Source of the DNA: a virus
IMG/VR virus record: IMGVR_UViG_3300046665_000384
Location: 28,974 to 92,973 of that record
Strand: one strand, 5' to 3'
DNA length: 64,000 nt
Part shown: positions 6,921-35,531 of the stretch, one piece after another
How positions within the stretch are numbered: the stretch's first letter is position 1
Layout of the letters: each line of letters begins with the position of its first letter
Notes under the pieces: generated by a model
What the model was told of the DNA's origin: nothing
The model's database searches: none
Seen by the model: only the letters and a program-made list of their open reading frames with translations
Program-made: the position numbers and the translations under genes

Positions 6921-8564
6921 ATGGAAACGAAGAACAACACCGCCAGCATCGATCTGGCCCAGCTGGAAGCACTGGCGCGAGCGGCCGATCCGAACGGCGC
7001 GTATCATCTTGTTACCCACTATCGCCACGGCGCAGACGTGAAGGCCGAGGAGGCATGGCGGCAAGCCGCGACCCCGGCCGCCGTGCGCCAGCTGATCGAC
7101 CTCGTGCGCCGCGCCCAGCCGCGCGTAACCGAGCAGGCGGACGAACGGGCGAAGTTATCGCAAGATGAGGTGATTGAGCTTCTTCGCGCAGCAGGCATCC
7201 CAGATAACCAGCTTCGCCTACTGTATGGCGGACATGGTCTGACCTTGTACCTTGAGCACTTGACCACTTTCGCCAACACGACCCGCGCCGCGCTCACCCA
7301 GCAAGCCGCGCCCGAAGCACCTACCGAGAACGCCGAACTCACCACGTTGCTAGAAAAACTCCATGAGCACTGGGGCGACTGCTTGTGGATAGACGCCAGC
7401 GAATTGATGGCATTAGAGAAAGTGATTACGTCCGCACCGGCCGCACAGCAGGCAGGAGCGGCTGTCGATGACGGCTACCGCTGGCGCGACTGCGAGGATT
7501 GCGGCGGCAGCGGTCGCATCAGCCCGAACGAACTGTGCGCGCGCTGTGAGAAAAGCGGCATTCTTCCTGCGGCCACCACGGCAAGCGCGAGCTATGAGAT
7601 GCCGGAAGGCGTCAAGAACCAGATCGAAACGCTGGGATGGAAGCTGCGCAACCACGAGCGGGCCTTAGAAATGCGCAAGCTGCACGACAAGGGCGACGTC
7701 TGGTACTGGCAGGGCGATGGCGGCGACAACTTGGAATCGATGAGCATGGGCATGGTCGTTGTGATCTGCGCTGACGACTTCCGCGCAGCCCTCGCCCGCG
7801 CCCAAGCACCCAGCCGGGATGCTGCGCCGCTGGAAGCCATCCGGACATTACGCATCGCTCTCATCAATGCTGCCGTGAAACCTCAATGGGCCGAAAGCAT
7901 CGCCCAGCGCGCACTGGAGGCGACAAAACAATTTGCAGGCGCTGATCTCGCCCAGCAGGGCGCATCCCATGCACCGCTGACCGGTGATGCCGCCGAGTTG
8001 GACGCGTGCGCTGCAATGCGCGCTCAATGCGGGCACTGCGGCGGCACGGGCGACGTACATCGTGGCGATGGCGAATACATCGGCGAATGCTGGTGCAAGG
8101 CCAGTGGGAACGACGGGCTGACCGCTGCCGAGCGCACCTTCGTAGAAGTGGTGCGCCAGCGCCCCGGCCACAAGCTGAATTCCGGCGAAGCGTGGGGCCC
8201 CGAGGGCCAAGCGCTATGGGAAGCCCCGGAAAATCTGGGCCTGATCCGATGCGTGGGCAGCTTCAAATGGGTCGTGCCGGGCGCGCAGGCGCAGAACCCG
8301 GTGGCCGATGCTGTGCGCGCCGCGATCTGGAGCGCTGACGCGCCGACCGAGCAGCGCTGGTACTGGCACTGGAGCGGCAACCCGGACGATGCTCCGTTCC
8401 CGCTGTCGGTGCTGTGGAGCGGCACCGCGAAGAAGTGCTTCGTGTCGATGAACCAGACCGAGAGCGGCACCGCTGAATGGTGCGACGAATACGGCGGTTA
8501 TTGGACGCCCATCGTGGAGCCGCGCATTCCTGAAACCCTGCCGAAGAAGGGGAAGGCCCGATGA
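6921..8564 (+). CDS. Ead/Ea22-like polyvalent protein with two DnaJ-type CxxCxGxG fingers
   Basis: IDLAQLEALARAA..ATPAAVRQLI N-term; CEDCGGSG, CGHCGGTG. Confidence 0.65.
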   Translation: METKNNTASIDLAQLEALARAADPNGAYHLVTHYRHGADVKAEEAWRQAATPAAVRQLIDLVRRAQPRVTEQADERAKLSQDEVIELLRAAGIPDNQLRLLYGGHGLTLYLEHLTTFANTTRAALTQQAAPEAPTENAELTTLLEKLHEHWGDCLWIDASELMALEKVITSAPAAQQAGAAVDDGYRWRDCEDCGGSGRISPNELCARCEKSGILPAATTASASYEMPEGVKNQIETLGWKLRNHERALEMRKLHDKGDVWYWQGDGGDNLESMSMGMVVVICADDFRAALARAQAPSRDAAPLEAIRTLRIALINAAVKPQWAESIAQRALEATKQFAGADLAQQGASHAPLTGDAAELDACAAMRAQCGHCGGTGDVHRGDGEYIGECWCKASGNDGLTAAERTFVEVVRQRPGHKLNSGEAWGPEGQALWEAPENLGLIRCVGSFKWVVPGAQAQNPVADAVRAAIWSADAPTEQRWYWHWSGNPDDAPFPLSVLWSGTAKKCFVSMNQTESGTAEWCDEYGGYWTPIVEPRIPETLPKKGKAR

Positions 8565-8917
8565 GCGCCGAGTGGAAGCTCAAACGCACCGCGCAGTGCG
8601 CGAAATGCCCTTGGCGTAAGGACGTGGACCCGCACGACATCCCGAACGGCTACTGTGAGACGAAGCATCAGGGCCTCGCCAAGACCATCGCCAAAGGCGA
8701 CCCGCTGGAGCAGCTGCGCGGCAGCGTGCAGCACGTCATGGCATGCCACGAGATGGACGATGCCCATTGCGTCGGCTGGCTGGCCAACCAGCTCGGGCCG
8801 GGCAACAACATCGTCCTGCGCCTGCAAATGCGCACCTGCACGAACGCCAACAAGCTGCGCCTCGTCGGGGAGCAGCACGAGCGGTTCGAGGACACGCTGC
8901 CGGCCACTGAATCATGA
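8561..8917 (+). CDS. DUF6283-like Cys/His protein
   Basis: CAKCPWRKD...ACH....HCVGW. Confidence 0.65.
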   Translation: MSAEWKLKRTAQCAKCPWRKDVDPHDIPNGYCETKHQGLAKTIAKGDPLEQLRGSVQHVMACHEMDDAHCVGWLANQLGPGNNIVLRLQMRTCTNANKLRLVGEQHERFEDTLPATES

Positions 8918-9081
8918 GCCTCGTCGACTACCTCTACAAGAATCGGACCCAGATGGAACTGGCAAAAGAACTGGCGGCCAAAGCGCATGAGAACGCCGCC
9001 CTGAAGAACCGCGTGCACGAGCTGGAGCACGAGCTGTTCTGGATGCGCGTGGCCGAGCGCCAGCATGGAGAAGGCATATGA
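8914..9081 (+). CDS. 55-aa coiled-coil protein
   Basis: ATGA-coupled on both sides; read manually. Confidence 0.5.
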   Translation: MSLVDYLYKNRTQMELAKELAAKAHENAALKNRVHELEHELFWMRVAERQHGEGI

Positions 9082-9470
9082 TTCACACCCCCGAGCGCAT
9101 CCGGCAGCGCCGCGTCCAGATGCTCGTGCACTCGTACCTGTACTACCAGCTCGATGCGCCTATCGTGTCGGACGACACATGGCAGCGCTGGGCCGATGAG
9201 CTGAGCGCGCTCCAGCGCGAGCACCCGGCCCGCATCCGGTTCTACGATGCCGAGTTCGCCGACTGGGACGGGTCTACTGGGATGCACCTGCCGCGCGACG
9301 AATGGGTGCGCCAGAACGCGCTACGGCTGCGCGCAATCCACGAGCGCGGACATGCACGCCCCGAGCCGGAGAAAACGCCGCCAGCGCCCGATACGCGCCC
9401 GCCAGCCCTATTCGACGCGCCGCCGAAGAAAGCACCAGCGGCCCCGCCGCCGCAAATGTCGCTGTTCTGA
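9078..9470 (+). CDS. stand-alone LigA domain-Ia-like protein
   Basis: HSYLYYQLDAPIVSDDTW matches the NAD-ligase N-terminal Y..D.P.I.D motif. Confidence 0.65.
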   Translation: MIHTPERIRQRRVQMLVHSYLYYQLDAPIVSDDTWQRWADELSALQREHPARIRFYDAEFADWDGSTGMHLPRDEWVRQNALRLRAIHERGHARPEPEKTPPAPDTRPPALFDAPPKKAPAAPPPQMSLF

Positions 9471-9480
9471 CCGCAGGACG

Positions 9481-9514
9481 AAAAAAAGCCCCGACTCACG
9501 GGGCTTTTTGTTTT
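9481..9514. terminator. bidirectional intrinsic terminator
   Basis: AAAAAAAGCCCCG-loop-CGGGGCTTTTTG between convergent genes. Confidence 0.85.
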
Positions 9515-9524
9515 GCCGGGGGCG

Positions 9525-9920
9525 TCAGTTCCAGCCGACCGGGCAGGAAATGCTCAGGGTCTCGGGACACAATCGCTCGTGCGCATTGGAGACGGGGACG
9601 TGCGAAGCGCTCATCAGGGCCGCGTAGCCCGGCAGGGCGATCACCGAGGCCATCAACATCACCGCGACAGGACTTCGTTCGATGGGCACGGCGGGCTTGA
9701 CCATGCCGGCGGCCAGCTGGGCGCGCTCGACTGCCGCGACGGCCACGACCGGGGCGGTGACAATCGCATCATTGGCGACGACCGAGACGGCGGCCTGCTC
9801 GATGCGCGGCGGGCTGGTACCGGGCGAAGCCGGGACGACCTGTGCGCACACGCTGGCGGCGAAGCCCATCAGTGCGACGGCGGCCAGCGTGACGAGCATG
9901 CGGGATCGGGATTTCAGCAT
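9525..9920 (-). CDS. secreted/membrane protein
   Basis: Signal-peptide-like N-term; AGGAG RBS. Confidence 0.5.
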   Translation of the reverse strand: MLKSRSRMLVTLAAVALMGFAASVCAQVVPASPGTSPPRIEQAAVSVVANDAIVTAPVVAVAAVERAQLAAGMVKPAVPIERSPVAVMLMASVIALPGYAALMSASHVPVSNAHERLCPETLSISCPVGWN

Positions 9921-9956
9921 CTTGACTCCTTGGGTTGAGGTTGGACTACGAAGGGA

Positions 9957-10247
9957 TTACGCGGTCACACGGACGGCGTGGGTTGCCGAGCAGCTGATCG
10001 ACGAGGTGCTGATGACCGGCGAATCAGCCGGGCCGGACCAGCTCAGGTAGCCGCTGCACGACACGGAAACGTTCTTGGTGTCGTCGTCCGCCAACAGGTC
10101 GACGACGGCATTGACGTTGGCCAGCACGGCGTCGCGGTCGCGCGCATGCATCGGCTGGTGCGCGAGGACGATTTCATCGAATTTGGCGGCGGCGGCCGCT
10201 TTGACTCCGGCCTTATCTGCTGCTGCGACGGTGAACGAAAAGCTCAT
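9957..10247 (-). CDS. hypothetical protein
   Basis: AAGGA RBS; MSFSFTV...SVSCSGYLSW. Confidence 0.6.
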   Translation of the reverse strand: MSFSFTVAAADKAGVKAAAAAKFDEIVLAHQPMHARDRDAVLANVNAVVDLLADDDTKNVSVSCSGYLSWSGPADSPVISTSSISCSATHAVRVTA

Positions 10248-10285
10248 GGGGTTCCTTCAGGTGGGTTGAACTGCGGAGAAGCCGG

Positions 10286-10432
10286 TTACGAGTGGAGCGA
10301 CAGCCAAAGCCAGAGAAATCGGCACAGGGCGTCCGAGAAGGCCCAGCCGATGGGCAGCGCGCACGCGACGAGGAGGGCGAGCCCGGCGGCGCTGATGCGT
10401 TGTCCGCCTGCACGGCGAAGTCGCATCTTCAT
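10286..10432 (-). CDS. 48-aa hydrophobic peptide
   Basis: MKMRLRR...GLALLVACALPIGW; GAGG RBS. Confidence 0.35.
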   Translation of the reverse strand: MKMRLRRAGGQRISAAGLALLVACALPIGWAFSDALCRFLWLWLSLHS

Positions 10433-10443
10433 TCCCTCATTTC

Positions 10444-10455
10444 GTGAGCGCATAC
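10444..10455. promoter_or_regulatory. operator copy GTGAGCGCATAC abutting the dif-like site
   Basis: Exact motif copy without the upstream TTGAC. Confidence 0.65.
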
Positions 10456-10456
10456 G

Positions 10457-10484
10457 ATTTGACATAAGATAGATTATGCGAATC
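10457..10484 (-). other. dif-like XerC/XerD recombination site
   Basis: Minus strand GATTCGCATAA-TCTATC-TTATGTCAAAT vs E. coli dif GGTGCGCATAA-TGTATA-TTATGTTAAAT. Confidence 0.85.
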
Positions 10485-10497
10485 TAAGTCATTGATT
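10485..10497 (-). promoter_or_regulatory. IHF consensus site
   Basis: AATCAATGACTTA = WATCAANNNNTTR. Confidence 0.65.
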
Positions 10498-10651
10498 TTA
10501 AAGGACTTTTAATCGACAATACATTTTCTATTGTCGAGTCCGGTTGTTGCGCGAATCCGGCCCGAGAACGTCCCGGAAAACGGTCCCAGAGTGCCTAGCG
10601 GTGATCTGCCCAGCTTCGCGCCCGGTATGGTCGCCACACACTACGGGGATG

Positions 10652-10692
10652 ACTGTACGGCTGGCCCCGGCACGCGCCCGGCGGCGTTTTCC
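10652..10692 (-). promoter_or_regulatory. late-promoter motif copy
   Basis: GGAAAACG-N27-TACAGT; near-identical to 48488-48528. Confidence 0.7.
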
Positions 10693-10712
10693 TAACCGCG
10701 CGGCGCTTTCTC

Positions 10713-10742
10713 TTGACAGTTAGTTTCGTGATCGCATACATT
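10713..10742 (+). promoter_or_regulatory. sigma70 promoter with operator
   Basis: TTGACA-N18-TACATT; GTGATCGCATAC at 10728-10739. Confidence 0.75.
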
Positions 10743-10785
10743 ATGCGCAGTTAAGCGCGAGACGCGGCATTACACGGAGAATTTG

Positions 10786-10995
10786 ATGGACAAGAGCAGG
10801 ATCAGGGTCGCGAGAAACACCTACGGCAATTACGTGGGCTTCATCGGCTCGAAGGCGGCCGAGCAGTTCGGCGAGGACGAGTTCCGCGCAACGCAATGGC
10901 TGAGCGACCGTCTCAACGAGGGCGGATTCGTCCTGTCGGCGAAAAGCGATGTGACCATGCGCGATGTCGAGCGCCACCGCGCGAACGTCGCATGA
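10786..10995 (+). CDS. small early protein
   Basis: GGAG RBS after promoter. Confidence 0.55.
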   Translation: MDKSRIRVARNTYGNYVGFIGSKAAEQFGEDEFRATQWLSDRLNEGGFVLSAKSDVTMRDVERHRANVA

Positions 10996-11303
10996 CGAAG
11001 GCCCCTAGCACCATGCTGCTGAACCTCAGTTCCCTCATGCTCCGCCTGCTGGCGCAGCACGCACCCCTCGGCAGCTTGCTTGCGAAGATCGGCATGCAGC
11101 TGCGCCACCGCCACGACGCCGCCAGCGGGGTCCAGATCATGGCCGACGACAGCGACGCCGCGTGCATCGCCCGGTGCGCGCTGGATCGGTTCGAGGCACT
11201 GGGCCACGCCATTGCCGCCGCCGAGACTGACGCGGACAAGGAACCGCTGTTCATCGAGTACCACGCGTGGCGCGCGCTCGTGCGCCAGCTGCCGCCGGCT
11301 TGA
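10992..11303 (+). CDS. hypothetical protein
   Basis: ATGA coupling. Confidence 0.5.
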   Translation: MTKAPSTMLLNLSSLMLRLLAQHAPLGSLLAKIGMQLRHRHDAASGVQIMADDSDAACIARCALDRFEALGHAIAAAETDADKEPLFIEYHAWRALVRQLPPA

Positions 11304-11328
11304 GCGCCCGCCGGGTCCGTGCTAAAGT
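11300..11328 (+). promoter_or_regulatory. sigma70 promoter for putative ncRNA
   Basis: TTGAGC-N17-TAAAGT with extended TGn. Confidence 0.5.
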
Positions 11329-11334
11329 ACCCGG

Positions 11335-11660
11335 CAACCACACGGCTGGCATCTACCGAGGAGCGAGAACACACACAGGTAATGCTGGTGCAGTGCGCGG
11401 GCGGATAGGTGGGGTAGTCGCCAGCCGTGTGGTGATCCACGAAGAAGCGGGAGAAAGACGGCCCTTGAATCCCTCGACAAACAATAGCAGCAGTAAGTGG
11501 GCCTAGCCGGGGTGGGACCGGCAAGTAATAAGCCACTTCGCATGAAGGCTGAGCAGGCTACGAGTTAGCGCTTGCTGTCGGTAGTGGCCGGTTCGATCCC
11601 GGCAGCCGCGAAGATTGGAAACCGTCCGTAAGCCCCGGCCCCGCGCCGGGGCTTTTGTTT
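11335..11660 (+). ncRNA. putative structured ncRNA with tRNA-like 3' domain
   Basis: 14-bp stem 11337-11350/11420-11433; T-arm GCCGG-TTCGATC-CCGGC at 11587-11603; own promoter and terminator; no credible ORF. Confidence 0.55.
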
Positions 11661-11661
11661 T
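11630..11661 (+). terminator. intrinsic terminator
   Basis: AAGCCCCGGC-loop-GCCGGGGCTTTTGTTTT. Confidence 0.85.
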
Positions 11662-11790
11662 CGTCCTGCGAATTCCACAGGGCGGCCGAAATCGACCGCT
11701 TGCGGCCGCCCTCGCCGGCCATGTCCAAAACCATGCCTTTCCAGTTTTGGATGCGCCCCAACTTTCGCACACCGATATTGCACAAATTGC

Positions 11791-11819
11791 TTGACAGCAG
11801 TTTTGTGAGCGCATACATT
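11791..11819 (+). promoter_or_regulatory. sigma70 promoter with operator
   Basis: TTGACA-N17-TACATT; GTGAGCGCATAC at 11805-11816. Confidence 0.75.
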
Positions 11820-11867
11820 TATACCTATACGGCGCAAAGGCGTCGCAACTTTTGGAGAACAGATCAA

Positions 11868-12131
11868 ATGGCCGCGAATACCGAACTGACGAAATCGCAA
11901 CAGGCTGTGATCGATGCCATGAACGATGGCGCAAGGCTTGCCGTTGATCCGATTACGGGCGCACACCTGATCCGCTCATCCGAGCTGGCTAAAAAGCATG
12001 GCGTAGCACCAATGGAGCGGGTAAGCATCAAGACGTTCGACGCCTTGCGCAGCAAGCGTGCCATCAAGCGCCCGATCAAAGGCGGCACGGAGTTCACTTT
12101 CAACGGCTACGGAGATTTCATCGTCGCCTGA
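11868..12131 (+). CDS. small early protein
   Basis: GGAG RBS. Confidence 0.6.
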   Translation: MAANTELTKSQQAVIDAMNDGARLAVDPITGAHLIRSSELAKKHGVAPMERVSIKTFDALRSKRAIKRPIKGGTEFTFNGYGDFIVA

Positions 12132-12221
12132 ACATTAGCCCACCAAGTACCAGTCCACGGCCGCCACGAGCGGCCTTTGCCAGTAGAAGCGGCGCGCAGC
12201 GCTGCACAACGGAGAAACCCG

Positions 12222-12401
12222 ATGGCTACCCCAGAATCACAACTGATTGCCGCGCTAGAGCGCATCCGCGCCGGCCGCGTTGCACCGAACATGACTGACC
12301 GCCTGAGCGACACCGAAATGGCGCGCATTGCACACGAGGCCCTGACCGCTGCCGGCGTCGGGGCGAAGATCACCCCAGAAGCCCTGATGATCCTGAAGTG
12401 A
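12222..12401 (+). CDS. small protein
   Basis: GGAG RBS after repeated leader element. Confidence 0.5.
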   Translation: MATPESQLIAALERIRAGRVAPNMTDRLSDTEMARIAHEALTAAGVGAKITPEALMILK

Positions 12402-12961
12402 TCAATATGAAGTGCGCGATCCTTTTCCCGCATCACTGCTTGGGCGATCCGCGCGACGCGGAGGGATGCCGCCTGCCGAACAACCACGCCGGGCCGCATG
12501 AATTCGTCGCCGCCGATGGCCGCGTGATGCAGTGGGAAACCGATTTGGAATGCTCCTGCGAACACTGCATGGAAGGCTACGGCGACTACTGCACCACGTA
12601 CTGGCCGAAAGTGCGCGTGTTCGCGTTCTGCCGCTCGATGCCGGGCGAGCCCTCGATGCGCACGCAGCTGGAGGCCATTCAGGCGGCCATCGGTACCGAC
12701 GTCGACGCCGACTGCATCATTGAAGACGGCTCGCCGGCCCTCTCGCCGCCATCCAAGCGCCCGGCGCTGCGCCAGCTGCTGGAGACCGCCGCGCGCGGGG
12801 ATCGCGTCATCGTCGCGGCGTCCCGGCTGCTGGCCCTGACCCGCGCGGAGGTGCGCGCCGTCATCAAGCAATTCGACCGCGCAGGCGTTCAGGTGTCGTC
12901 GCTGGACGATGGCGACCTGAACGGCCTACGCCCCAATGGAGATTTTCAAGGAACCCTATGA
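12398..12961 (+). CDS. Cys/His-rich domain fused to degenerate serine-recombinase catalytic domain
   Basis: RVFAFCRS...Q...RPALRQLL....GDRVIV...GVQVSSLD; lacks RVS, DRL.R and HTH. Confidence 0.6.
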   Translation: MINMKCAILFPHHCLGDPRDAEGCRLPNNHAGPHEFVAADGRVMQWETDLECSCEHCMEGYGDYCTTYWPKVRVFAFCRSMPGEPSMRTQLEAIQAAIGTDVDADCIIEDGSPALSPPSKRPALRQLLETAARGDRVIVAASRLLALTRAEVRAVIKQFDRAGVQVSSLDDGDLNGLRPNGDFQGTL

Positions 12962-13452
12962 CGACCAAGTCGAAGAACCTCACCGACGATAATCAACCAG
13001 AAACCGCGCAAGACGCACAGCGCGACCTGACGCACATCGCCGCCTACCTGCGCGAGACCAGCGCACCTCAAACGCTGGTCAACCGCCTGATGGCCGTGAG
13101 CCAGTTCATCAAGACAAACAGCACTGCGCCCGCGTCGACAGCCGAGCTGGCCGCCGCCCAGCGCCACACCTACGCCAGCATCGCGAACAGCATGACCGGC
13201 AAGCACCGCGACGAAAAGCACACCGAATACGTCACGCTGGCGGATGCCGAGGCGGCCGTGCGCGCGGCCTCGGATCGAAAATCCGTGCTGCTGAAGGCCG
13301 CCTATGACCTGCTGGCGAAGCAACGCGACTCCGGGTACGTGCTGAACCTGCTGCAAGAAACGGCCTTCTACGATGATGCGGACTGCGATGGCTACTGCCT
13401 CATGGAAGAAATCGCGGACGAGCTGGGCATCGACACGGATGCGCAAGCATGA
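12958..13452 (+). CDS. hypothetical protein
   Basis: LLKAAYDLL...YDDADCDGYCL motif. Confidence 0.6.
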   Translation: MTTKSKNLTDDNQPETAQDAQRDLTHIAAYLRETSAPQTLVNRLMAVSQFIKTNSTAPASTAELAAAQRHTYASIANSMTGKHRDEKHTEYVTLADAEAAVRAASDRKSVLLKAAYDLLAKQRDSGYVLNLLQETAFYDDADCDGYCLMEEIADELGIDTDAQA

Positions 13453-13997
13453 GCGCCGTCAGCGAAGCGCTGATGCGCCGCATCGGCAAGATTAAAGCGC
13501 TGGCCGAGCGTGGCGTGGATGGCGAACAGGCCGCTGCACAGGCGATGCTGGAAAACATCCTGTCGCGCCACAATCTGACGATGGCCGACATCGAGGACAC
13601 CGCGCCGGTTCGTAGCTGGGTCGAGGTGAAGTTTTCAGGCGAGCATGAGCGCACACTCATGGGCCAGATTGTGCGCAAGGTGACACAGCAGAACGACCTC
13701 TACATTAAGCGCCAAAAGGGCACGCGAGCCCGCTACTACGTCGAGCTGTCGCCGGCCGAGCATGTCGAGGTCGAATTCTTGTTCGAGGTGATGCGCCGCG
13801 CGCTTGCCGATGAATTCGACAAAGTGCTGTCCGCCTTCATCTACCGCAATGACCTCTTTGGCCCCAGTGCCGAGAGCGACGAAGACGAGGAGCACCCGGC
13901 CGCGCGGACGCCTGAGCAGGTCGCCCGCTCGCGCCAGATTGCGGCGATGGCGATGCACATGAGCCCTGTCAACGTACGGAAAGCAATCGAATCATGA
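13449..13997 (+). CDS. DUF2786-domain protein
   Basis: [23 protein letters not shown]. Confidence 0.7.
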
Positions 13998-14209
13998 GCA
14001 TCGTCTATTCCGCCGATGTGTTCTGCGACGGCGAATGCGCCGGCCTCTGGACGCACGGGGCCACCGGATCGGCGGCCCCGACGAAGACCGAAGCACGCGC
14101 GAACGCCGCCCACTCGGGCTATGTCCACCACAAAGGCAAGGACTACTGCCCGGCATGCTGGAAAGCGCTCGCCGCCAAACAAAACGAACCCGAGGAGGCC
14201 CACCAGTGA
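13994..14209 (+). CDS. zinc-finger small protein
   Basis: FCDG.C...DYCPAC. Confidence 0.55.
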
Positions 14210-14799
14210 GCCGTGTTTTTGCCTACTGCCGCGTGTCGACGACGGACCAGACCACCGACAACCAGCGCGCGGAAATCGTCACCGCTGGGTACGCCATCGA
14301 GCCCCAGCGCGTCATCACGGAGACGATCAGCGGCTCCGTTGCGGCGAAGTCGCGCCCCGGCTTCAAAAAGCTGCTGGACCGGCTGGAGCGCGACGACGTG
14401 CTGATCGTGACGAAGCTGGACCGCCTCGGGCGCAACGCGTTCGACGTGCGCGGGACAGTGGAACACCTCGCCAGCATCGGCGTGCGCGTGCACTGCCTCG
14501 CGCTGGGCGGCATCGACCTCACCAGTGCGGCCGGCAGGATGACCATGCAAGTGATCGCCGCCGTCGCCGAGTTCGAGCGCGACCTGCTCATCGAGCGCAC
14601 GAATGCTGGCCTACGCACGGCGGTCGCGAAAGGAAAGCGCCTCGGCAGGCCACCCGCCCTGAACGAAGAAGACCGGGAACAGGCCCTCGCGCTGCTGGCG
14701 GTTGGCGTGCCCGTGTCCGAGGTGGCGCGCGACCTCGGCACCTCCCGCGCGACCATCATCCGCGTGCGCGACGCCGCACAGGAAGCAGCCCCGGCGTGA
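14206..14799 (+). CDS. serine recombinase (resolvase/invertase family)
   Basis: [34 protein letters not shown] plus C-terminal HTH. Confidence 0.95.
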
Positions 14800-14954: not shown

Positions 14955-15077
14955 ATGAGCAAAAAGCAGTTCGCAAAACTGGCTGCAAAATTCGGAGGCT
15001 GGATGGAGGGCGACGTAGCGCGCTTCCCGACTGTATGGGCAAAGCAGGAATTTGAGAAGGCACTTGCTGCCGCCTAA
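14955..15077 (+). CDS. 40-aa small protein (MSKKQFAKLAAKFGGW...)
   Basis: Read manually; same leader as 4223. Confidence 0.5.
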   Translation: MSKKQFAKLAAKFGGWMEGDVARFPTVWAKQEFEKALAAA

Positions 15078-15124
15078 ACACCAACCCGCGCCCGCTTCGG
15101 TGGGCGCGCTTTTAGGAGCCGAGA

Positions 15125-15364
15125 ATGCCCCTCCTCAATGCCCTCGATGTCCGCCTTACGCGCGACCGCTTCGACGATCCGCTCGTCATCATCGACACTC
15201 CCCTCGGGAATGGCATGGCCGCCTCGCCGGCCCAGTTGCGCGAACTGGCGCGTACGTTCCTGCTGGTGGCGACCGCCGCCGAGGCGTACCCGACGAAGAC
15301 GAAGCACTTCACCGATGCGCCGCGCACGTTCCCAATGAACATGTACCCGGACGCGCGGAAGTAG
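15125..15364 (+). CDS. hypothetical protein
   Basis: AGGAG RBS; SPAQLRELA motif. Confidence 0.6.
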   Translation: MPLLNALDVRLTRDRFDDPLVIIDTPLGNGMAASPAQLRELARTFLLVATAAEAYPTKTKHFTDAPRTFPMNMYPDARK

Positions 15365-15459
15365 ACCCGCTCGCCCAGCAGCGCCCATGCCCGCCACGAG
15401 CGGGCTTTGTCCATAGAAGGCTGCGCACCGGGCGCGGCCACGATTTGAAGGAGCCCCAC

Positions 15460-15732
15460 ATGAGCACCACCCCCGCGCGCGAGGCCAACGCGTGCGTCCT
15501 GCACGAGCGCCCCGGAGTGCAGACCGTGTGGCTGGTCGAAGTGCCCATTACGTCCGCTGCAACGAAGATGTATCAGGCGACGACCTACCCGCATAGCGCG
15601 CTGATCTTCCTGCAAGGCGAGCGTGGGCGCACGATCCCGCCCGGCGTTGCAACGCGGCTGCTGCCCACGGTGCGCGCCGCCATCGAGCGCGCCAAAGACA
15701 ACCACACAACCGAAGAAAGCAAGCCCAGATGA
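15460..15732 (+). CDS. hypothetical protein
   Basis: AAGGAG RBS. Confidence 0.55.
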   Translation: MSTTPAREANACVLHERPGVQTVWLVEVPITSAATKMYQATTYPHSALIFLQGERGRTIPPGVATRLLPTVRAAIERAKDNHTTEESKPR

Positions 15733-15992
15733 GAGTCGATGAGAAGTTCAATAAGCGCACGGCCAATCAGGTCGAGGTCGTCGCGCCGGTCGTTCAACAT
15801 GGCCCGAAGTACGATCTAGGCGTTCGTGTCACCCTTTACGCGACCCACGACAGCGATAAAGGCCAGCTCGGAATCAACATGACGGCCTACGAGGCGCTGG
15901 AATGGGCGCAGAAACTGACGGGCGCGGCCATCCAGCAACTGAAGTACGAAGCCGAGCGCGCGGAAGCCCTGCGCACGCGCCCCGCTGCATAA
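15729..15992 (+). CDS. hypothetical protein
   Basis: ATGA coupling. Confidence 0.55.
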   Translation: MRVDEKFNKRTANQVEVVAPVVQHGPKYDLGVRVTLYATHDSDKGQLGINMTAYEALEWAQKLTGAAIQQLKYEAERAEALRTRPAA

Positions 15993-16012
15993 CCCAACAC
16001 TGGAGAACCACA

Positions 16013-16333
16013 ATGCCACGACATCAAGCAAGCGAAGAAAGTTTGAAACAGGGTATCGCCGAAATACGCAAGCTGGCCGAAGCGCACGAGTCCCGCGTAG
16101 CGAAGGCGGCCAAGCTGGAGCAGCTGGCCCCGCTGGGGTTCCGGGACGCCGAGGATGGGGAAGCACCGGACGCCCTCTGGCACCCGGTGCTCGGCCCAAT
16201 CAACCACGGCAGCGTCAGACTGGAGAACGTGCTGGACCTCGTGTACGCCGCCGGCATGAAGCGCGGCGCGGACGACCTGCGAGCCCATCTCCGCGCTCTG
16301 CTCGACGTTCCGCAAGCGCCCCGGCCGGAGTGA
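16013..16333 (+). CDS. hypothetical protein
   Basis: GGAG RBS. Confidence 0.55.
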   Translation: MPRHQASEESLKQGIAEIRKLAEAHESRVAKAAKLEQLAPLGFRDAEDGEAPDALWHPVLGPINHGSVRLENVLDLVYAAGMKRGADDLRAHLRALLDVPQAPRPE

Positions 16334-16352
16334 CCTTCCTCCAGCGCACGAG

Positions 16353-16377
16353 AGCCCGCCCAGCGGGCTTTTTTTTC
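16353..16377 (+). terminator. intrinsic terminator
   Basis: AGCCCGC-loop-GCGGGCTTTTTTTT. Confidence 0.8.
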
Positions 16378-16470
16378 GTCTACCCCAAAAGCAAAAAGCC
16401 CGACTATCTCTCGACAATCAGGCTTTCAACCGGCCGCACGGGACGACCTCACGGGCTACGCCCAAGCGAA

Positions 16471-16668
16471 TTACACCGCCCTGCGCGCATTGCGCGAGCG
16501 TGCCGGGCCTTGCGGCTGACCGGTAAGCACGCGCGGCGCTGCCGGTGGCACTGGGATGCGCTGGAACTGGCGCACATCGTACCCGGCAAGACTGAGCCCG
16601 TCGCGCTCAAACCGGGCAACGTCGGCGGGATGCACCAGCAGCACTGGCAAACTCGTTTTCTCCATCAT
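16471..16668 (-). CDS. small hypothetical protein
   Basis: AGGAG RBS. Confidence 0.4.
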   Translation of the reverse strand: MMEKTSLPVLLVHPADVARFERDGLSLAGYDVRQFQRIPVPPAAPRVLTGQPQGPARSRNARRAV

Positions 16669-16787
16669 TTCTCCTGTTTTTTCGTCCAAAATCATTGTGC
16701 GGAATCATTCCCCTGTACGAAAGTCGTTTCACTAGGTTCTGGACAGCCTGTCGGGCAGATGTCCGCAAGCGAACGATTCCGGTCGCG

Positions 16788-17099
16788 CTACCGCCCGCGC
16801 TTGGTCCGCAGCTCGCGCGCACGCCGGCCGCTGCGCTGGGCACCCTGAACCGGCCAACTTGACCGTTTTGGCAAGTTCGCGACGTACGCACGCACCGGGT
16901 CAGGCCAGCGCTCCACGCGCGGCAGTGGGTCCAGACGAAACAAGCGCTCCGCATCGGCCAGCAGAGCCTCGAAATCGGGCGCAGGAGGCGCGATCTGCGT
17001 CGCGGACGAATCAAGAGCCACGGACACGCCAAGACCGCCCAAAACGCGCGCCAGCGCTTCCCCGAGGCCAGCGCCGCCACACACCAGCACGACCCTCAT
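16788..17099 (-). CDS. hypothetical protein
   Basis: ATGA coupling. Confidence 0.45.
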   Translation of the reverse strand: MRVVLVCGGAGLGEALARVLGGLGVSVALDSSATQIAPPAPDFEALLADAERLFRLDPLPRVERWPDPVRAYVANLPKRSSWPVQGAQRSGRRARELRTKRGR

Positions 17100-17383
17100 G
17101 CCGCGCACCCACCGGCCCGCCGGTAGGTCATTGGCTTAGCGGCGTACGCCTCGCGCATCCGACGCAACACGGCATCACGATTGCGCCAGAAATAGATGGC
17201 GGCCCTCATGCGCAACTCTAGACGATAGCGCTCGCGATACGTGGCCGTGTACTGCCTCACCTTGTCCGGGTTGTCACGCTTATACTGCGCCGACTTGGCC
17301 TTCAGCATGGCCTTGTTCGCTTGGTAATACCGGCGCTTACGCTCGCGCTCCGCCTCGGTCGTTTTCAGCTCCCGGCGCATCAT
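17096..17383 (-). CDS. basic helical protein
   Basis: RRYYQANK...YKRDNPDKVR repeats. Confidence 0.55.
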   Translation of the reverse strand: MMRRELKTTEAERERKRRYYQANKAMLKAKSAQYKRDNPDKVRQYTATYRERYRLELRMRAAIYFWRNRDAVLRRMREAYAAKPMTYRRAGGCAA

Positions 17384-17724
17384 GCTGCCGCCTCCACGGC
17401 CGCCAGAAACTCGCGCGCATCGGCCCGCCGGTATTCCCACAGGTGGGCGTGCTGCGGGTACCGCACGACGAACACGCGGGCCAGATCGGGCACCCAGTTC
17501 CCGTTCACCTTGAACGAGCACGCGCCGGCCTCGCGCAGCCGCGTGTAATGGCGAATCTCCTCCACGATGGTGCGGGCCGAGAAATGCCGGCGGCCGGCCG
17601 CGATCAGCTCCAGCGTCTGCCGCTCGAACTGGCGGTAGATCGGCTCGTTCATCGCCAGCCACGGCAGGAAGCCGGGCCGGAAATACTCGTTGAATTGCAC
17701 CAGATCGGCGCAGGTCGATTCCAT
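17380..17724 (-). CDS. conserved phage protein
   Basis: N..IY..FE...L....GRRHFSARTIVE.IR..T; FKVN.N..P..AR. Confidence 0.65.
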   Translation of the reverse strand: MESTCADLVQFNEYFRPGFLPWLAMNEPIYRQFERQTLELIAAGRRHFSARTIVEEIRHYTRLREAGACSFKVNGNWVPDLARVFVVRYPQHAHLWEYRRADAREFLAAVEAAA

Positions 17725-17741
17725 GGCTGTTTCTCCTTTCG

Positions 17742-19271
17742 TTATGCCGCGTCTTGCATGCCCAGTTCGGCCAGAAGTCGTTTCTTGGCCTCGTCCTTGG
17801 CGTTGTCGTCGTTGGCGGCCACCTCGCCGCTCAGGTTGTAGTAGGCGTCTTCGAGGAAGCCGAACGCGAGCGAGTCAAACGCGTCAGGCGACGGGATGCC
17901 TTCCTTGCGCATGTCCTCTTTCTTGGCGATGTAGCGGCGGGCCTTCTCGTCGAAGTGGTACGGGATGCGCGAGCCCTCGCGGATGATCTGCTTGACGACG
18001 GCCGGGTCGATGCCCTCGTCTATGCCGAAGCGGCCCTCTTGGATCGCGCGCGCCAGCCCGCAAATAGCCTGCGCGCGCTGGTTCACATAGCGGTCCTTGT
18101 ATTCCTTCTTGAAGTTCGGCGAGCCCCAGAGAACTTTCTTGAAGGCGTGGAAATCGGCCTTCTCCAGCGCCTTGCACACCGCGAGGCCGATGCCGCCCGC
18201 GTCGATCATGGTCATGGAGTTCGGCAGCTGACCGGCCTCGGTGACGATGCGCCCCGGCAGGTCCGACACGTCCTGATCGTTCGCGCACACCGGCACGCGC
18301 ACGAGCTGCATGCGGCGCGCGTCGTCGCCGAACTCGCCATAGCCGGCCACCTTGACCGCGAACAGCGTCGTCTTGTCGCGGTACCCGCCGCCGCCCACGT
18401 CCGAGAGCTGGAGCCAGCCGTAATCCTCGCCCGGCAAGATGACCTGCCGGCCCACGCACGCCTGAATGGCCTTCGGGCCGAGCAGGTATTTGCTGGACTG
18501 CTCCGAAAACAGGCCCAGCACCTTGATATCGAATTCCTCGGGCGTGTACTGGAGCTTCTTCTCGGCGATGAACTCCTCGGACACGATGGGCGAATCGGCC
18601 GAGCTGAACGTCAGGTTGTTCCACGCGCCGCCCTCGCCCTTGGACAGCGTGTGGTGCGTGTCGTAGAAGAAGCCCGAGGCGCGGGTCGGCTGCGACGCGA
18701 TGCACATGCGGTTGCGCTTGTCCGTCAGCGCGCCCGTGATCACGCCGAAGTTCGCATCAGGCACGCCGGACGCCTCGTCGACGAGGAACAGCAGCCAGTC
18801 CCGGTGCGCACCCGCGAGGTTTTCAGGCGAGCCGCGCGGCGCGGTCTTGGCCACAACCCACCAGTTCAGCTTGTAGCCCTTGATGTACACCCGCTCGGTT
18901 TCCACCTCGTAATACTCGTCCACCCATCCGTGCGGGCCGGCGGCGATCTTGGCCTTGAGGTCGGCGAATTCCTTCCAGACACCATCTGCAACAGTGGCCT
19001 TCTTAGGCGCGGACAGGATCGTGTTCGAGTTGTAGAAGCAGAGCAGATGCCACAGGGCGATTACGGCAAAGCCGGCAGTCTTGCCGGTACCGTGGCCAGA
19101 CGCCACCGACGTGCGCGATCCGGGCGGCGCAACGCTGTCGAACATCTCGACCTGCTGGTGCGTGGGCACCATGCGGCAGACCTCGATGGCGAACCGGGTC
19201 AGGTCGAACGAATAGCGCAGCACGAAATCGCGGTAGCGCGGGTCTTCCCGGAGCGATTTTGTACGGGCCAC
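17742..19271 (-). CDS. pacB: terminase large subunit, P1 PacB-like
   Basis: SGHGTGKT, LAGAH, FLVDEASG, DVGGG, SPD..DS. Confidence 0.92.
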   Translation of the reverse strand: MARTKSLREDPRYRDFVLRYSFDLTRFAIEVCRMVPTHQQVEMFDSVAPPGSRTSVASGHGTGKTAGFAVIALWHLLCFYNSNTILSAPKKATVADGVWKEFADLKAKIAAGPHGWVDEYYEVETERVYIKGYKLNWWVVAKTAPRGSPENLAGAHRDWLLFLVDEASGVPDANFGVITGALTDKRNRMCIASQPTRASGFFYDTHHTLSKGEGGAWNNLTFSSADSPIVSEEFIAEKKLQYTPEEFDIKVLGLFSEQSSKYLLGPKAIQACVGRQVILPGEDYGWLQLSDVGGGGYRDKTTLFAVKVAGYGEFGDDARRMQLVRVPVCANDQDVSDLPGRIVTEAGQLPNSMTMIDAGGIGLAVCKALEKADFHAFKKVLWGSPNFKKEYKDRYVNQRAQAICGLARAIQEGRFGIDEGIDPAVVKQIIREGSRIPYHFDEKARRYIAKKEDMRKEGIPSPDAFDSLAFGFLEDAYYNLSGEVAANDDNAKDEAKKRLLAELGMQDAA

Positions 19272-19274
19272 CCG

Positions 19275-20186
19275 TTACCCCCTGACCACCACGTCGGTGA
19301 CGGCAGCAGCGGCGGCCTTCTTGCGCGCGAGCACGCGCTGACGGTTGGCCTCCATCTGGGCCATCGCCTCGGCATACGTGTTGTCCAGCGCATCGTTGTC
19401 GATGGGCGTGATGTTGACCTCGGTTTTCGTCTCGACCTGATCCTTCCAGCCGATCAGGTTCTTCGCGGCCAGTGTGGCGAAGCGACCCTCATAGCAGCCG
19501 GACAGCCCGCCCTCGATCAGCAAGGCGTCCTGAAAATCCTTCGCGCGCGCGTATGCGTAAGCAAATTCCGGGTACTTGGGGGTGCCGTCCGCGTGCGTGA
19601 TGGTCGCCCACTCGTGCAGCGTCTGCCGCGTGACCCCGAGTTTCGAGGCGAACCGGGTGATCGTGGGGAATGTGTTGATCACGACGCGCTTGACTGTCCG
19701 CAATCCCCCGTTTCCGTCCGGCTCCTCGCTTTCGACCACCGATTGCACTGGGATGTCGAAGAACCTGATCATCTCGTCGCAATACTCGGCGCGGTATTCC
19801 GTGGGGCGGCCGACAGGTCGCTTACCCGTGAGGAGCTGCCAATCGGTGGCGGAGAGCCTGCCGGACGTACCCAGCGCGGAGGATTCATCGGAGGAGGTGC
19901 TGCCCTTGGCCGAAACTTTCGACGGCTTGTCCTTGCCCGAAACTTTCGCGGGCTTGGATGGGGCCGAAACTTTCGGCTCGGGCTTGGGTTGCGGGGGTGC
20001 TTCAGGGGCGGGCTGGGAAGATGCCGGCGCGGCCCCTCCCCTCACCCATCCGTCTTTCTCGGCCTTCTGGCCTACTGCGGGGCGGCTGCATCCGAAGATG
20101 TCGGCGATGTTCTGGAACGTGACCTCGGGATCACCTTCCCACAACTCGCGGGCCTGCGCCCATTGTTCCTTGGTCAACCGTGCCAT
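19275..20186 (-). CDS. terminase small subunit (PacA position)
   Basis: N-term HTH; GRPT.Y; FPT..RFA..LGV.R.TL.EW...PEF; upstream of TerL. Confidence 0.8.
   Translation of the reverse strand: MARLTKEQWAQARELWEGDPEVTFQNIADIFGCSRPAVGQKAEKDGWVRGGAAPASSQPAPEAPPQPKPEPKVSAPSKPAKVSGKDKPSKVSAKGSTSSDESSALGTSGRLSATDWQLLTGKRPVGRPTEYRAEYCDEMIRFFDIPVQSVVESEEPDGNGGLRTVKRVVINTFPTITRFASKLGVTRQTLHEWATITHADGTPKYPEFAYAYARAKDFQDALLIEGGLSGCYEGRFATLAAKNLIGWKDQVETKTEVNITPIDNDALDNTYAEAMAQMEANRQRVLARKKAAAAAVTDVVVRG
19911..19975. repeat. three CGAAACTTTCG palindromes at 27-bp period (pac-site candidate)
   Basis: Copies start at 19911, 19938 and 19965 inside TerS. Confidence 0.55.
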
Positions 20187-20231
20187 TCGTTCCCTTGTAC
20201 TGCCCCGAGATAGAGTTACCGCCCAGTCGCG

Positions 20232-20272
20232 ATTATCGAGGCGTAACTTTCGGGCTCAGGGCGTAACTTTCC
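20232..20272 (-). promoter_or_regulatory. late-promoter motif upstream of terS
   Basis: GGAAAGTT-N27-GATAAT. Confidence 0.6.
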
Positions 20273-20427
20273 TATTTCCAGCGCTCGATGATCACGATGA
20301 GGGCAAAGGCCATTCCCCCTACGTACGCGACCATGAACCAGAACCGGCTGCTGAATGGCTCGGGGTCGACCAAGCCGGCAAGGCCGAGCGCACAGGCGGC
20401 CAGCATTCCCCACGCGGCGAGGATCAT
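20272..20427 (-). CDS. 51-aa two-TM peptide
   Basis: MILAAWGMLAACALGLAGL...FMVAYVGGMAFALIVII; ATGA coupling. Confidence 0.45.
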   Translation of the reverse strand: MILAAWGMLAACALGLAGLVDPEPFSSRFWFMVAYVGGMAFALIVIIERWK

Positions 20428-21595: not shown

Positions 21596-21597
21596 GC

Positions 21598-34905: not shown

Positions 34906-34911
34906 CGGCCC

Positions 34912-35460: not shown

Positions 35461-35531
35461 CAAATTTCCCTTGCCATTAAATATAAATAACCTGATAATT
35501 GCTACATCATTACTTACTTTGGTGTAACAAC

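Follow-up and report, generated by a model that had tools for sequence, protein, structure and literature searches.

The stretch of DNA analysed here (the window, 64,000 nucleotides) belongs to a 92,973-bp myovirus with ParA and ParB, a parS-like array and a CI-like repressor. The phage is probably temperate and maintained as a low-copy plasmid, the plasmid state being read from ParA, ParB and the parS-like array. As shown in Table 1, a dif-like core of 28 bp lies on the minus strand, with an operator-like motif and a small ORF on the side of its XerD arm and an IHF consensus, a palindrome and a structured-RNA-like block on the side of its XerC arm. The original prediction had described the core, an operator 1 bp from the XerD arm, an IHF consensus adjoining the XerC arm and a palindrome beyond it, and all of these were found to be present. 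It had also held that the site is not a prophage boundary, in agreement with the phage DNA found on both flanks (PHROG matches and synteny with relatives on each side).

Table 1. Features of the Xer site, its flanks and the candidate recombination and partition genes (positions in the window).
Feature	Position	Strand	Remarks
Small ORF, 48-aa hydrophobic peptide	10286–10432	−	starts ~25 bp past XerD arm; no PHROG match
Operator-like motif TTTCGTGAGCGCATAC	10440–10455	+	1 bp from XerD arm; no TTGACA −35 upstream
dif-like core, 28 bp	10457–10484	−	arms and central region read from sequence
XerD arm TTATGTCAAAT	10467–10457	−	part of 28-bp core
Central region TCTATC	10473–10468	−	between XerC and XerD arms
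XerC arm GATTCGCATAA	10484–10474	−	part of 28-bp core
Sigma-70-like promoter candidate	10473–10501	−	−35 TTAAAA 10501–10496; −10 CATAAT 10478–10473
IHF consensus AATCAATGACTTA (WATCAANNNNTTR)	10485–10497	−	directly adjoins XerC arm
Palindrome TCGACAATA-N7-TATTGTCGA	10513–10537		unique in genome; ~28 bp from XerC arm
Structured-RNA-like block	10549–10621	−	upstream of palindrome; helix GCGCGAA/TTCGCGC, compensatory changes
Divergent promoter TTGACA-N18-TACATT	10713–10742	+	operator in spacer; drives + strand genes from 10786
Small serine recombinase (resolvase/invertase family)	14035–14799	+	kept in relatives
RdgC-FtsK-gamma fusion gene	32675–33937	+	gamma domain ~33725–33904; directly upstream of parB
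Partition module	33937–36173	+	ParB 33937–34905; ParA 35499–36173
parS-like repeat array	35076–35432		between ParB and ParA; second IHF consensus at 35102–35114

The core has the layout of the dif/cer/psi superfamily, with an 11-bp XerC arm, a centre within the 6–8 bp range and an 11-bp XerD arm, and the inner partial dyad symmetry expected of Xer sites (CATAA / TTATG) is present. The arms of GATTCGCATAA-TCTATC-TTATGTCAAAT agree with the dif consensus at 21 of 22 positions, one arm base being off. The pattern TTCGCATAA-N6-TTATGTTAAAT, allowing up to three mismatches, matched once in the window and not at all in 100 shuffles of it, and the whole 92,973-bp genome carries a single dif-like site. 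Judged by its sequence, the 28-bp element is a genuine XerC/XerD-type site, from which we infer XerCD binding, catalysis and dimer resolution. In a sample of 81 Burkholderiales genomes, 43 showed one chromosomal dif, with the arms TTCG[C/T]ATAA / TTATGT[T/C/A]AAAT; the phage arms are identical to the arms of these 43 sites, a sample that may not include the host's own.

In this genome, though not in its relatives, the maximum of the cumulative GC skew falls at the site, so a skew-defined terminus was rejected as a general feature. Following the KOPS idea, GGGNAGGG motifs were found to converge on the site, which lies at or near the optimum in 8/9 genomes, although these genomes are related and strand composition confounds the count. 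Single tests against random positions gave 0.04–0.18, and the convergence is suggestive only. Nucleotide searches with positions 8000–14000 against phage and plasmid collections returned no matches, and the 547-aa neighbour used as a query returned no related viral loci.

On the XerD side, the operator motif has seven matches in the window against 1.7 expected, and elsewhere in the genome it sits inside TTGACA-N17-TACAAT-type promoters. Only two of the eight family members, this phage and G004, which is closest to it, have the motif beside the XerD arm, and the proposed gating of the site by the phage repressor is not supported; in the other family members the XerD arm is directly followed by a ribosome-binding site and a start codon. 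An ORF for a hydrophobic peptide of 48–78 aa lies directly past the XerD arm in every family member, and the peptides are not all homologous. The divergent promoter is kept in relatives, pBVIE05 included.

On the XerC side, the IHF consensus was matched twice in 64 kb against 0.3 expected. The box stands at a fixed offset in all seven relatives while its N4 varies (TGAC, AGAC, ACAC, CGGG, AGGC), and the same arrangement of an IHF box against an XerC arm was found in at least seven unrelated metagenome contexts. The palindrome, a candidate binding site for a dimeric protein, is kept in six of the seven relatives with a variable N7. It was rejected as an RNA hairpin or terminator: a U-tract is absent, and changes in one half are uncompensated in the other, which points to a DNA site. 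The conserved IHF box and palindrome fit accessory or regulatory sites; they are not ARG or ArcA boxes, and no accessory signature of the ArgR, ArcA or PepA type was evident.

Further out, the conserved flank behaves as structured RNA, so this part of it is better read as such than as accessory DNA. The covariation was read from seven sequences only, and the block had no match in an Rfam search of positions 9900–11400. Its 'GGATTCGCGC' segment was considered as an auxiliary XerC half-site and rejected, since, in the manner of an RNA helix, it shows compensatory changes with its pairing partner GCGCGAA, which lies about 60 nt away. The core itself overlaps a promoter-like sequence whose −10 lies within the XerC arm and which reads through the core towards the small ORF. 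It matches at 9/12 hexamer positions, by consensus only, and part of the site conservation could thus be transcriptional. A sigma-54 arrangement of upstream activator site, IHF site and promoter was discarded, as there is no GG-N10-GC element.

A profile search found no PF00589 tyrosine recombinase in this phage or its seven relatives, while the search controls were matched in 14/14 genomes; the phage thus lacks what a Cre/lox-type system needs, a tyrosine recombinase of its own acting on a cognate 34-bp site. The small serine recombinase could be the real multimer resolvase; no convincing res-like or invertible-segment repeats were found near it. A further gene encodes an RdgC-FtsK-gamma fusion (Pfam PF04381, 4e-104; PF09397, 88 bits), the gamma domain of which is about 55–60% identical to that of P. 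aeruginosa FtsK and keeps VQR and YNRAAR (PMC5052618). This protein is a possible XerD activator. It is not a phage-specific invention, as the best 120 homologues all carry both domains. The fusion is also chromosomal in Oxalobacteraceae (Janthinobacterium, Duganella), the source of its closest cellular homologues, many of which lie on chromosomal contigs of these two genera of up to 6.7 Mb. The relative G001 has the Xer site and lacks the gamma domain. The literature searched on RdgC-gamma fusions, pBVIE05 and Xer sites in phage-plasmids yielded nothing relevant.

The site is conserved among related elements. Exactly one site, in the syntenic place, was found in each of seven related IMG/VR contigs (TerL 74–92% identical). 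Across the eight family members the XerD arm is nearly invariant (TTATGT[C/T/A]AAAT), and in the XerC arm the inner GCATAA is invariant while the outer five bases vary. Conservation is thus higher in the XerD than in the XerC arm and in inner than in outer bases, as in true dif sites, and the intergenic DNA around the site is far more diverged than the site itself. Sequence conservation among the relatives ends at the XerD arm; about 1 kb beyond it, encoding small peptides and secreted proteins, is variable and is followed by a conserved 130-aa gene. Three of the related contigs carry terminal repeats, and two distant relatives, pBVIE05 (B. vietnamiensis) and a P. psychrotolerans plasmid, occur in finished genomes as circular plasmids. 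Together with the par genes here, relatives that are circular or terminally repeated point to an autonomously maintained circular replicon, as for cer and psi. In pBVIE05 the XerC arm is degenerate and bears an indel, and that copy may be non-functional.

Among sheath-related elements read whole, seven had the site without a tyrosine recombinase (the present phage, G000; G001, G007, G008, G010, pPRS08 and pBVIE05), four had the reverse (three Pseudomonas plasmids and an integrated copy in an Ideonella megaplasmid) and none had both, a tally that represents only about 4–5 independent lineages. Xanthomonas phage Rb1 has neither the site nor a tyrosine recombinase, and ParAB and CI matches are also absent from it. 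Among the relatives examined, an Xer site can stand in for a tyrosine recombinase encoded by the element, and the reverse. A dif-like site was also found about 2 kb from parA in an unrelated phage-plasmid family (G002 and G003, 98 and 101 kb), whose members encode a terminase, a head closure protein, ParA, ParB and a primase and no tyrosine recombinase.

Compared with the common TGTATA, the central region has a different base at position 2, by the XerC cleavage point, and at position 6, by the XerD cleavage point, so the spacer is indeed unlike the canonical one, as had been noted. TCTATC occurred in 0/43 of the sampled Burkholderiales chromosomal dif sites, which may not include the host's own. 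In 5,426 complete E. coli genomes, E. coli-type arms with TCTATC were found at 592 plasmid and three chromosomal places, and TCTATC is plasmid-specific in this species. Like cer and psi, the phage site therefore has a centre distinct from chromosomal dif. TCTATC-bearing plasmid dif sites occur in about 11% of the complete E. coli genomes, where they are unannotated, and in 557 PLSDB plasmids, of which 489 are conjugative. The identical centre was found in very many unrelated contexts of 38–69% GC.

We consider it probable that the locus is a plasmid-type Xer site using host XerCD for multimer resolution, as a functional stand-in for Cre/lox. As the phage has no tyrosine recombinase, it would borrow XerC and XerD of its host, which would act on the site of this 93-kb plasmid-maintained myovirus and convert dimers arising from homologous recombination into monomers before partition. 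With arms identical to those of chromosomal dif in Burkholderiales, the site should be bound well by both recombinases, and the mismatches beside both cleavage points should block recombination with host dif. The IHF box and the palindrome would most likely be architectural or accessory sites on the XerC side, and they may also control the core promoter reading into the small membrane-peptide gene. Activation could come from septal FtsK, from the phage's own RdgC-FtsK-gamma protein or from an accessory-protein synapse. The mutual exclusion of site and tyrosine recombinase among relatives makes a functional replacement for a Cre/lox-type system plausible. Circularisation of injected DNA, another role suggested for the site, would not be needed, as the phage has RecT.

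A wider proposal is tentative, and we hold it possible rather than likely: plasmid-borne dif sites with TCTATC would form a class of very wide distribution that seems not to have been described, a 'private Xer channel' insulated from chromosomal dif. From Enterobacteriaceae to Burkholderiales, plasmids, megaplasmids and phage-plasmids with no relation to one another would share this channel, both for dimer resolution and for recombination among themselves. This phage family would belong to a subclass in which IHF is fixed at the XerC arm and a core promoter reads into a small membrane peptide, as a dimer checkpoint like that of cer/Rcd. No description of the TCTATC site class was found in the literature searched, where it may go by another name.

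If exchange between replicons were the main role and dimer resolution secondary, XerCD would fuse the phage with other TCTATC plasmids and bring about exchange between them, by forming cointegrates, by letting conjugative plasmids mobilise the phage or by swapping adjacent cassettes. The recurrence of the centre in many unrelated contexts and in mostly conjugative PLSDB plasmids is consistent with this, as is the variable DNA that begins at the XerD arm of the relatives. However, each genome has one site and hence no two-site pdif-type module, no cointegrate was observed, and variable moron regions are common in phages without Xer involvement. Such a role could moreover exist alongside dimer resolution without taking its place, and as the main function we regard it as unlikely.

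We give still less credence to a site that serves chiefly in transcription control, with XerC/XerD, IHF and a palindrome-binding protein regulating the core promoter of the small membrane peptide; in one version this would be a dimer-sensing checkpoint like Pcer/Rcd of ColE1 cer, with recombination secondary. There is precedent in cer, which has an internal promoter that nearby XerCD are believed to repress (PMC4393325). The promoter-like hexamers, the peptide ORF present in every family member and the centre of the palindrome, which lies about 59 bp before the predicted start, where activators typically bind, could all be read in this way. But a CATAAT −10 is intrinsic to any GCATAA-T dif arm and so carries no information, the A/T-rich '−35' may simply belong to the IHF site, homology of the peptides does not extend across the family, and a second, late-type upstream promoter could drive the same genes. 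Conservation of both arms would also be left unexplained unless XerCD bind.

Integration at chromosomal dif by host XerCD, as in the IMEX phages CTX-phi, VGJ-phi and TLC-phi, had been put forward together with dimer resolution, and we now find it very improbable. The phage lacks an integrase of its own, its pair of Xer arms is perfect, and many small viral contigs with the same arms resemble classical IMEX elements. Against these points, the centre departs from TGTATA beside both cleavage points and was absent from all sampled Burkholderiales dif, with which its homology would not be enough for one strand exchange, and 592/595 of its places in E. coli are on plasmids. The phage has a parS-like array as well as ParAB, and the relatives known occur as plasmids or as circular contigs. 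When relatives integrated at dif were looked for, 401 Burkholderiales genomes gave only two relatives, both on small contigs, and in this limited sample no copy was found inserted at a chromosomal dif with dif-like sites on both sides. The single integrated relative seen, that of the Ideonella megaplasmid, encodes tyrosine recombinases and lacks a dif-like site. Least credible of all is an inactive relic, a captured dif-like sequence without present function: the pBVIE05 copy has a degenerate arm, but one intact copy stands in the same place in 8/8 family members despite far more diverged surroundings, the flanking IHF box is kept with a free N4, and the site excludes element-encoded tyrosine recombinases.

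Phage-plasmids are now seen as common, and we know of no description of dimer resolution for most of them. A 2024 review names multimer resolution as one function, with no mention of Xer (PMC11652158). The present case suggests that whole phage-plasmid families dispense with a Cre-like enzyme and borrow host XerCD, and the TCTATC plasmid dif sites of E. coli make this idea directly testable in standard strains. Given the shared TCTATC, it may also be asked whether recombination by Xer connects plasmids with phage-plasmids. Among accessory architectures for Xer recombination, one with an IHF site fixed at the XerC arm would be new.

Compared with known systems, the site shares with FtsK-dependent chromosomal dif, including that of secondary chromosomes and megaplasmids, arms identical to those of Burkholderiales, a 6-bp spacer and a large low-copy replicon with ParAB. 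The phage also encodes an FtsK-gamma domain, and GGGNAGGG motifs tend to converge on its site, which is suggestive only. It differs in having TCTATC instead of TGTATA and in lying within a promoter region next to accessory-like motifs, and a GC-skew maximum at the site is seen in this phage genome only. Acinetobacter-type pdif modules require paired opposed sites on either side of a gene module, whereas each complete relative has one. With the IMEX phages it shares a mobile element that has a dif-like site and no integrase, and XafT of TLC-phi offers an earlier case of an Xer activator encoded by the element itself (PMC6744903); unlike them, it is a 93-kb tailed phage with partition genes, a centre mismatched to sampled dif and no integrated copies found. 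The TCTATC sites of IncF enterobacterial plasmids and Pantoea megaplasmids have the same central region and XerD arm with a host-adapted XerC arm, (G)GTGCGCA[T/C]AA-TCTATC-TTATGTTAAAT, and in E. coli are almost entirely plasmid-borne; one IncF example lies at about 39.55 kb of pH2291-144. They differ from the phage site in their flanks, the lack of an IHF box, their gammaproteobacterial hosts and their conjugative replicons.

The site had originally been proposed as a replacement for cre/loxP of P1. This holds as a functional analogy: both are phage-plasmids with a par system that need dimer resolution, and the site appears in the same functional slot. A close tie to P1 does not hold, as the sheath is only about 23% identical to that of P1-like plasmids and the kinship is distant; the phage, unlike P1, has no Cre or other tyrosine recombinase, and the recombinase would be supplied by the host. 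The parS of P1 uses IHF, and the partition site of the phage likewise carries an IHF consensus.

In cer and psi, about 150–200 bp of accessory sequence on the XerC side binds PepA together with ArgR or ArcA. The phage site has no evident ARG box or ArcA-type site and has instead an IHF consensus at the XerC arm and a unique palindrome beyond, neither of which, to our knowledge, has been described for cer or psi. Its arms are near-perfect dif arms, whereas those of cer and psi are weakened, and its replicon is a 93-kb tailed phage and not a small plasmid. With ColE1 cer and pSC101 psi it shares a single XerC–central–XerD core on a plasmid replicon that relies on host recombinases, a central region that departs from chromosomal dif and extra conserved elements on the XerC side. 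The 6-bp length of the central region is that of psi, and the site may harbour a promoter, much as cer harbours Pcer (PMC4393325).

The dif-like core of G000, the phage-plasmid under study, is real, unique and conserved; its central region is plasmid-specific, and among the sheath-related elements read, such a site does not occur together with an element-encoded tyrosine recombinase. Of the 22 arm positions, 21 were identical to the proteobacterial dif consensus. A search with TTCGCATAA-N6-TTATGTTAAAT, allowing up to three mismatches, returned the core as its single match and nothing in 100 dinucleotide-preserving shuffles, and the core was the only dif-like site in the entire 92,973-bp record. 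The core, the operator beside its XerD arm, the perfect IHF consensus abutting its XerC arm and the palindrome beyond the IHF box were all found as the original prediction had described them. Two perfect IHF consensus sequences were observed in the 64 kb window against 0.3 expected, one being the box at the core and the other lying inside the repeat array between ParB and ParA.

Coordinates of features at and around the dif-like core and elsewhere in the window
Feature	Position	Strand	Sequence	Remark
dif-like core	10457-10484	minus	GATTCGCATAA-TCTATC-TTATGTCAAAT	
Operator-like motif	10440-10455		TTTCGTGAGCGCATAC	1 bp from XerD arm
IHF consensus, perfect	10485-10497		WATCAANNNNTTR	adjoins XerC arm
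Palindrome	10513-10537		TCGACAATA-N7-TATTGTCGA	unique in genome
Conserved block of about 70 nt	10549-10621	minus		between late-type promoter and palindrome
Small serine recombinase	14035-14799			conserved
RdgC-FtsK gamma fusion	32675-33937			directly upstream of parB; complete RdgC and PF09397
ParB-ParA intergenic array	35076-35432		GGTTTGGT/ACCAAACC repeats	both orientations
IHF box within parS-like array	35102-35114			only other perfect IHF consensus of the window

The window makes up the right-hand 64 kb of a virus record from IMG/VR, rated complete by CheckV. G000 encodes a tail sheath, a large terminase, RecT, a helicase loader, a CI/LexA-type repressor and a small serine recombinase, as well as ParB and ParA with a dense GGTTTGGT/ACCAAACC repeat array in between. 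This intergenic region resembles a centromere of the P1 parS kind, bent by IHF. No tyrosine recombinase was detected in G000 with PF00589, a search that was positive in 14 of 14 control genomes. The sheath-nearest named relative was the circular plasmid pBVIE05 of Burkholderia vietnamiensis G4 (61% identical), followed by a Pseudomonas psychrotolerans plasmid and other Pseudomonas plasmids, also circular; Xanthomonas phage Rb1 was sheath-related as well. One related contig stems from a Noviherbaspirillum MAG, and the closest cellular homologues of the G000 RdgC were found in Janthinobacterium and Duganella. Since its nearest named relatives are circular plasmids, G000 is, judged by sequence, a phage-plasmid whose lineage is environmental, GC-rich and probably part of the Burkholderiales. 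To the left of the window (genome positions 14984-22376), four consecutive tail-fibre-like genes encode products of 805, 565, 215 and 447 aa, respectively. They share an N-terminal segment of about 140-170 aa, which matches a single pBVIE05 region, and may be alternative receptor-binding cassettes.

Each of seven related viral contigs (terminase identity 74-92%; terminal repeats in three of them) contained exactly one dif-like site, always in the same position some 7-10 kb past the terminase gene's 3' end. The XerD arm was TTATGT[C/T/A]AAAT in the whole family, while the XerC arm had an invariant inner GCATAA and five variable outer bases. Sampled chromosomal dif sites varied in a similar pattern, some with a C/T change within the inner XerC-arm block. 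Of the eight genomes, five had TCTATC as the central region, two had TTAGCA and one had TCTTTC. All members carried the IHF box, AATCAA-N4-TT, at a fixed offset on the XerC side with N4 being TGAC, AGAC, ACAC, CGGG or AGGC, and the palindrome, CTCGACAATA-N7-TATTGTCGAG with variable N7, was kept in six of the seven relatives. The conserved IHF box and palindrome are best read as footprints of protein-binding sites. An RNA hairpin was argued against because changes in the palindrome halves were uncompensated, as in TATTG to TAATG. In relative G001, an inverted second XerC-arm copy (CTTCGCATAA-TCATAA..., L070:7375-7400) stands in place of the palindrome upstream of the dif-like site, about 45 bp from it with the IHF box in between; this arrangement would put two XerC arms either side of a bend.

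On the XerD side, sequence conservation ended at the arm. The operator lay next to the arm only in G000 and its closest relative, G004, and the other members had a ribosome binding site and start codon within about 20 bp of it. Gating of recombination by the phage repressor, as originally proposed, is therefore not a family feature. The first ORF past the XerD arm encoded a hydrophobic peptide of 48-78 aa in every member, not all of these being homologous.

Eleven further sheath-related elements were read whole or nearly so, giving 12 with G000. Seven had the site and no tyrosine recombinase (G000, viral contigs G001, G007, G008 and G010, the P. psychrotolerans plasmid and pBVIE05), four had their own tyrosine recombinase and no dif-like site (three Pseudomonas plasmids and a copy integrated in a 709-kb Ideonella plasmid), and none had both. 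Phage Rb1 had neither, and searches of it for ParA, ParB and a repressor gave no match. The site of the P. psychrotolerans plasmid was ACTTCGCATAA-TACCGA-TTATGTTAAAG; that of pBVIE05, CTGTTCGATAA-TTGTAT-TTATGTCAAAT, had a degenerate XerC arm and lay within an intergenic region alignable with its G000 counterpart. A dif-like site, GTTTCGCATAA-TCAACA-TTATGTCAAAT, was also present about 2 kb from parA in an unrelated phage-plasmid family with terminal repeats, represented by G002 (98,275 bp; L095-L099) and G003 (101 kb; L100-L105), which encode a terminase, a head closure protein, ParA, ParB, a primase and one 6,419-aa ORF; no tyrosine recombinase was found in either. This pattern, drawn from only about four to five independent lineages, fits a site that takes the place of a Cre/lox-type system in plasmid maintenance. 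The proposed replacement of P1 cre/loxP would hold in this functional sense only; the sheaths of P1-like plasmids were only about 23% identical to that of G000. Four viral contigs of 47-52 kb (L014, L026, L028 and L033) carried the same Xer arms with other central regions starting with C, namely CCCCTT, CCAGCA, CCCATC and CAGATT.

Of 81 Burkholderiales genomes sampled, 43 had a single dif whose arms equalled those of G000 and whose central region was TGTATA or a close variant; none of the 43 had TCTATC, whose difference from the canonical TGTATA had already been noted. A metagenome scan with GCATAA-TCTATC-TTATGTNAAAT returned at least 120 loci, and those listed lay on contigs of 38-69% GC with many unrelated flanks. 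The E. coli-arm version, (G)GTGCGCA[T/C]AA-TCTATC-TTATGTTAAAT, was found on 557 PLSDB plasmids, 489 of them conjugative, with both of the two examined being IncF, and on Pantoea plasmids, of which two measure about 0.6 Mb. Among 5,426 complete E. coli genomes there were 592 plasmid versus 3 chromosomal places with this sequence, about 11% of the genomes having it on plasmids. One example, TGTGCGCACAA-TCTATC-TTATGTTAAAT, lies at about 39.55 kb of E. coli plasmid pH2291-144 (L233:1500-1527); the site was not annotated in the records examined. Absent from the 43 chromosomal dif sites and overwhelmingly on plasmids in E. coli, TCTATC is thus a central region of the plasmid type. Recombination between replicons that share TCTATC is unlikely to be the main role of the site. 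TCTATC and TGTATA have different bases adjoining both cleavage points, and, given how Xer strand exchange is known to work, these mismatches should disfavour recombination with chromosomal dif. Of the 120 metagenome loci listed, 10 had the IHF consensus abutting the XerC arm with an identical offset, and these came from at least seven unrelated contexts. Such a number greatly exceeds what chance would give, and the pairing of IHF box with Xer core is therefore a recurring architecture that is not peculiar to the G000 phage.

The alignment of the intergenic region showed a conserved divergent promoter with the operator within its spacer, and a conserved late-promoter-type TTAGGAAAAC block directed at the core. 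The conserved block of about 70 nt is closed by a helix pairing GCGCGAA and TTCGCGC, in which two relatives show compensatory replacement of G-C by A-U; it is read as a candidate structured leader or small RNA, and Rfam gave no match. These compensatory changes led us to prefer this reading to one as Xer accessory DNA. A sigma-70-like promoter candidate reads through the core, with its -10 element CATAAT inside the XerC arm. Taken alone, this match is weak evidence because CATAAT is common to every dif site. A mainly transcriptional role, possibly as a checkpoint like Pcer/Rcd in cer (PMC4393325), is quite improbable.

The gamma domain of the RdgC fusion scored 88 bits with PF09397 (cut-off 30.6) and was about 55-60% identical to P. 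aeruginosa FtsK gamma, keeping the VQR arginine and the YNRAAR..E segment. By our own residue mapping, which agrees with the control residues in PMC5052618, this arginine corresponds to E. coli FtsK R1289, the residue most important for XerD activation (PMC5052618). The fusion was present in G007, G008, G010, pBVIE05 and the P. psychrotolerans plasmid; in G001 the site was accompanied by an RdgC lacking gamma, and the Pseudomonas plasmids with their own recombinase lacked the fusion. The best 120 database homologues all had both domains, many on contigs of hundreds of kb to 6.7 Mb, including Janthinobacterium and Duganella. This rules out a phage invention and points to the ordinary RdgC of that bacterial group. 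RdgC-gamma is at best a doubtful candidate for a local XerD activator.

Xer sites on plasmids are textbook knowledge. Of the readings considered, the one with most support, and a fairly likely one, is that host XerCD act at the core and resolve plasmid-prophage dimers. The conserved serine recombinase is a caveat, because it could itself resolve dimers. IMEX-type integration, with the central region mismatched to the sampled chromosomal dif sites, is very improbable, and an inactive relic is hardly credible for a site kept in all seven related viral contigs. In the literature searched, where other names may be in use, we found no Xer site as a dimer-resolution device of tailed phage-plasmids, no IHF box fixed to the XerC arm and no TCTATC plasmid class. 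For dimer resolution by host XerCD, XerC and XerD would bind and recombine the core, and IHF and a palindrome-binding protein would have roles at the site. The activator could be septal FtsK, RdgC-gamma or, by analogy with cer and psi, an accessory synapse.
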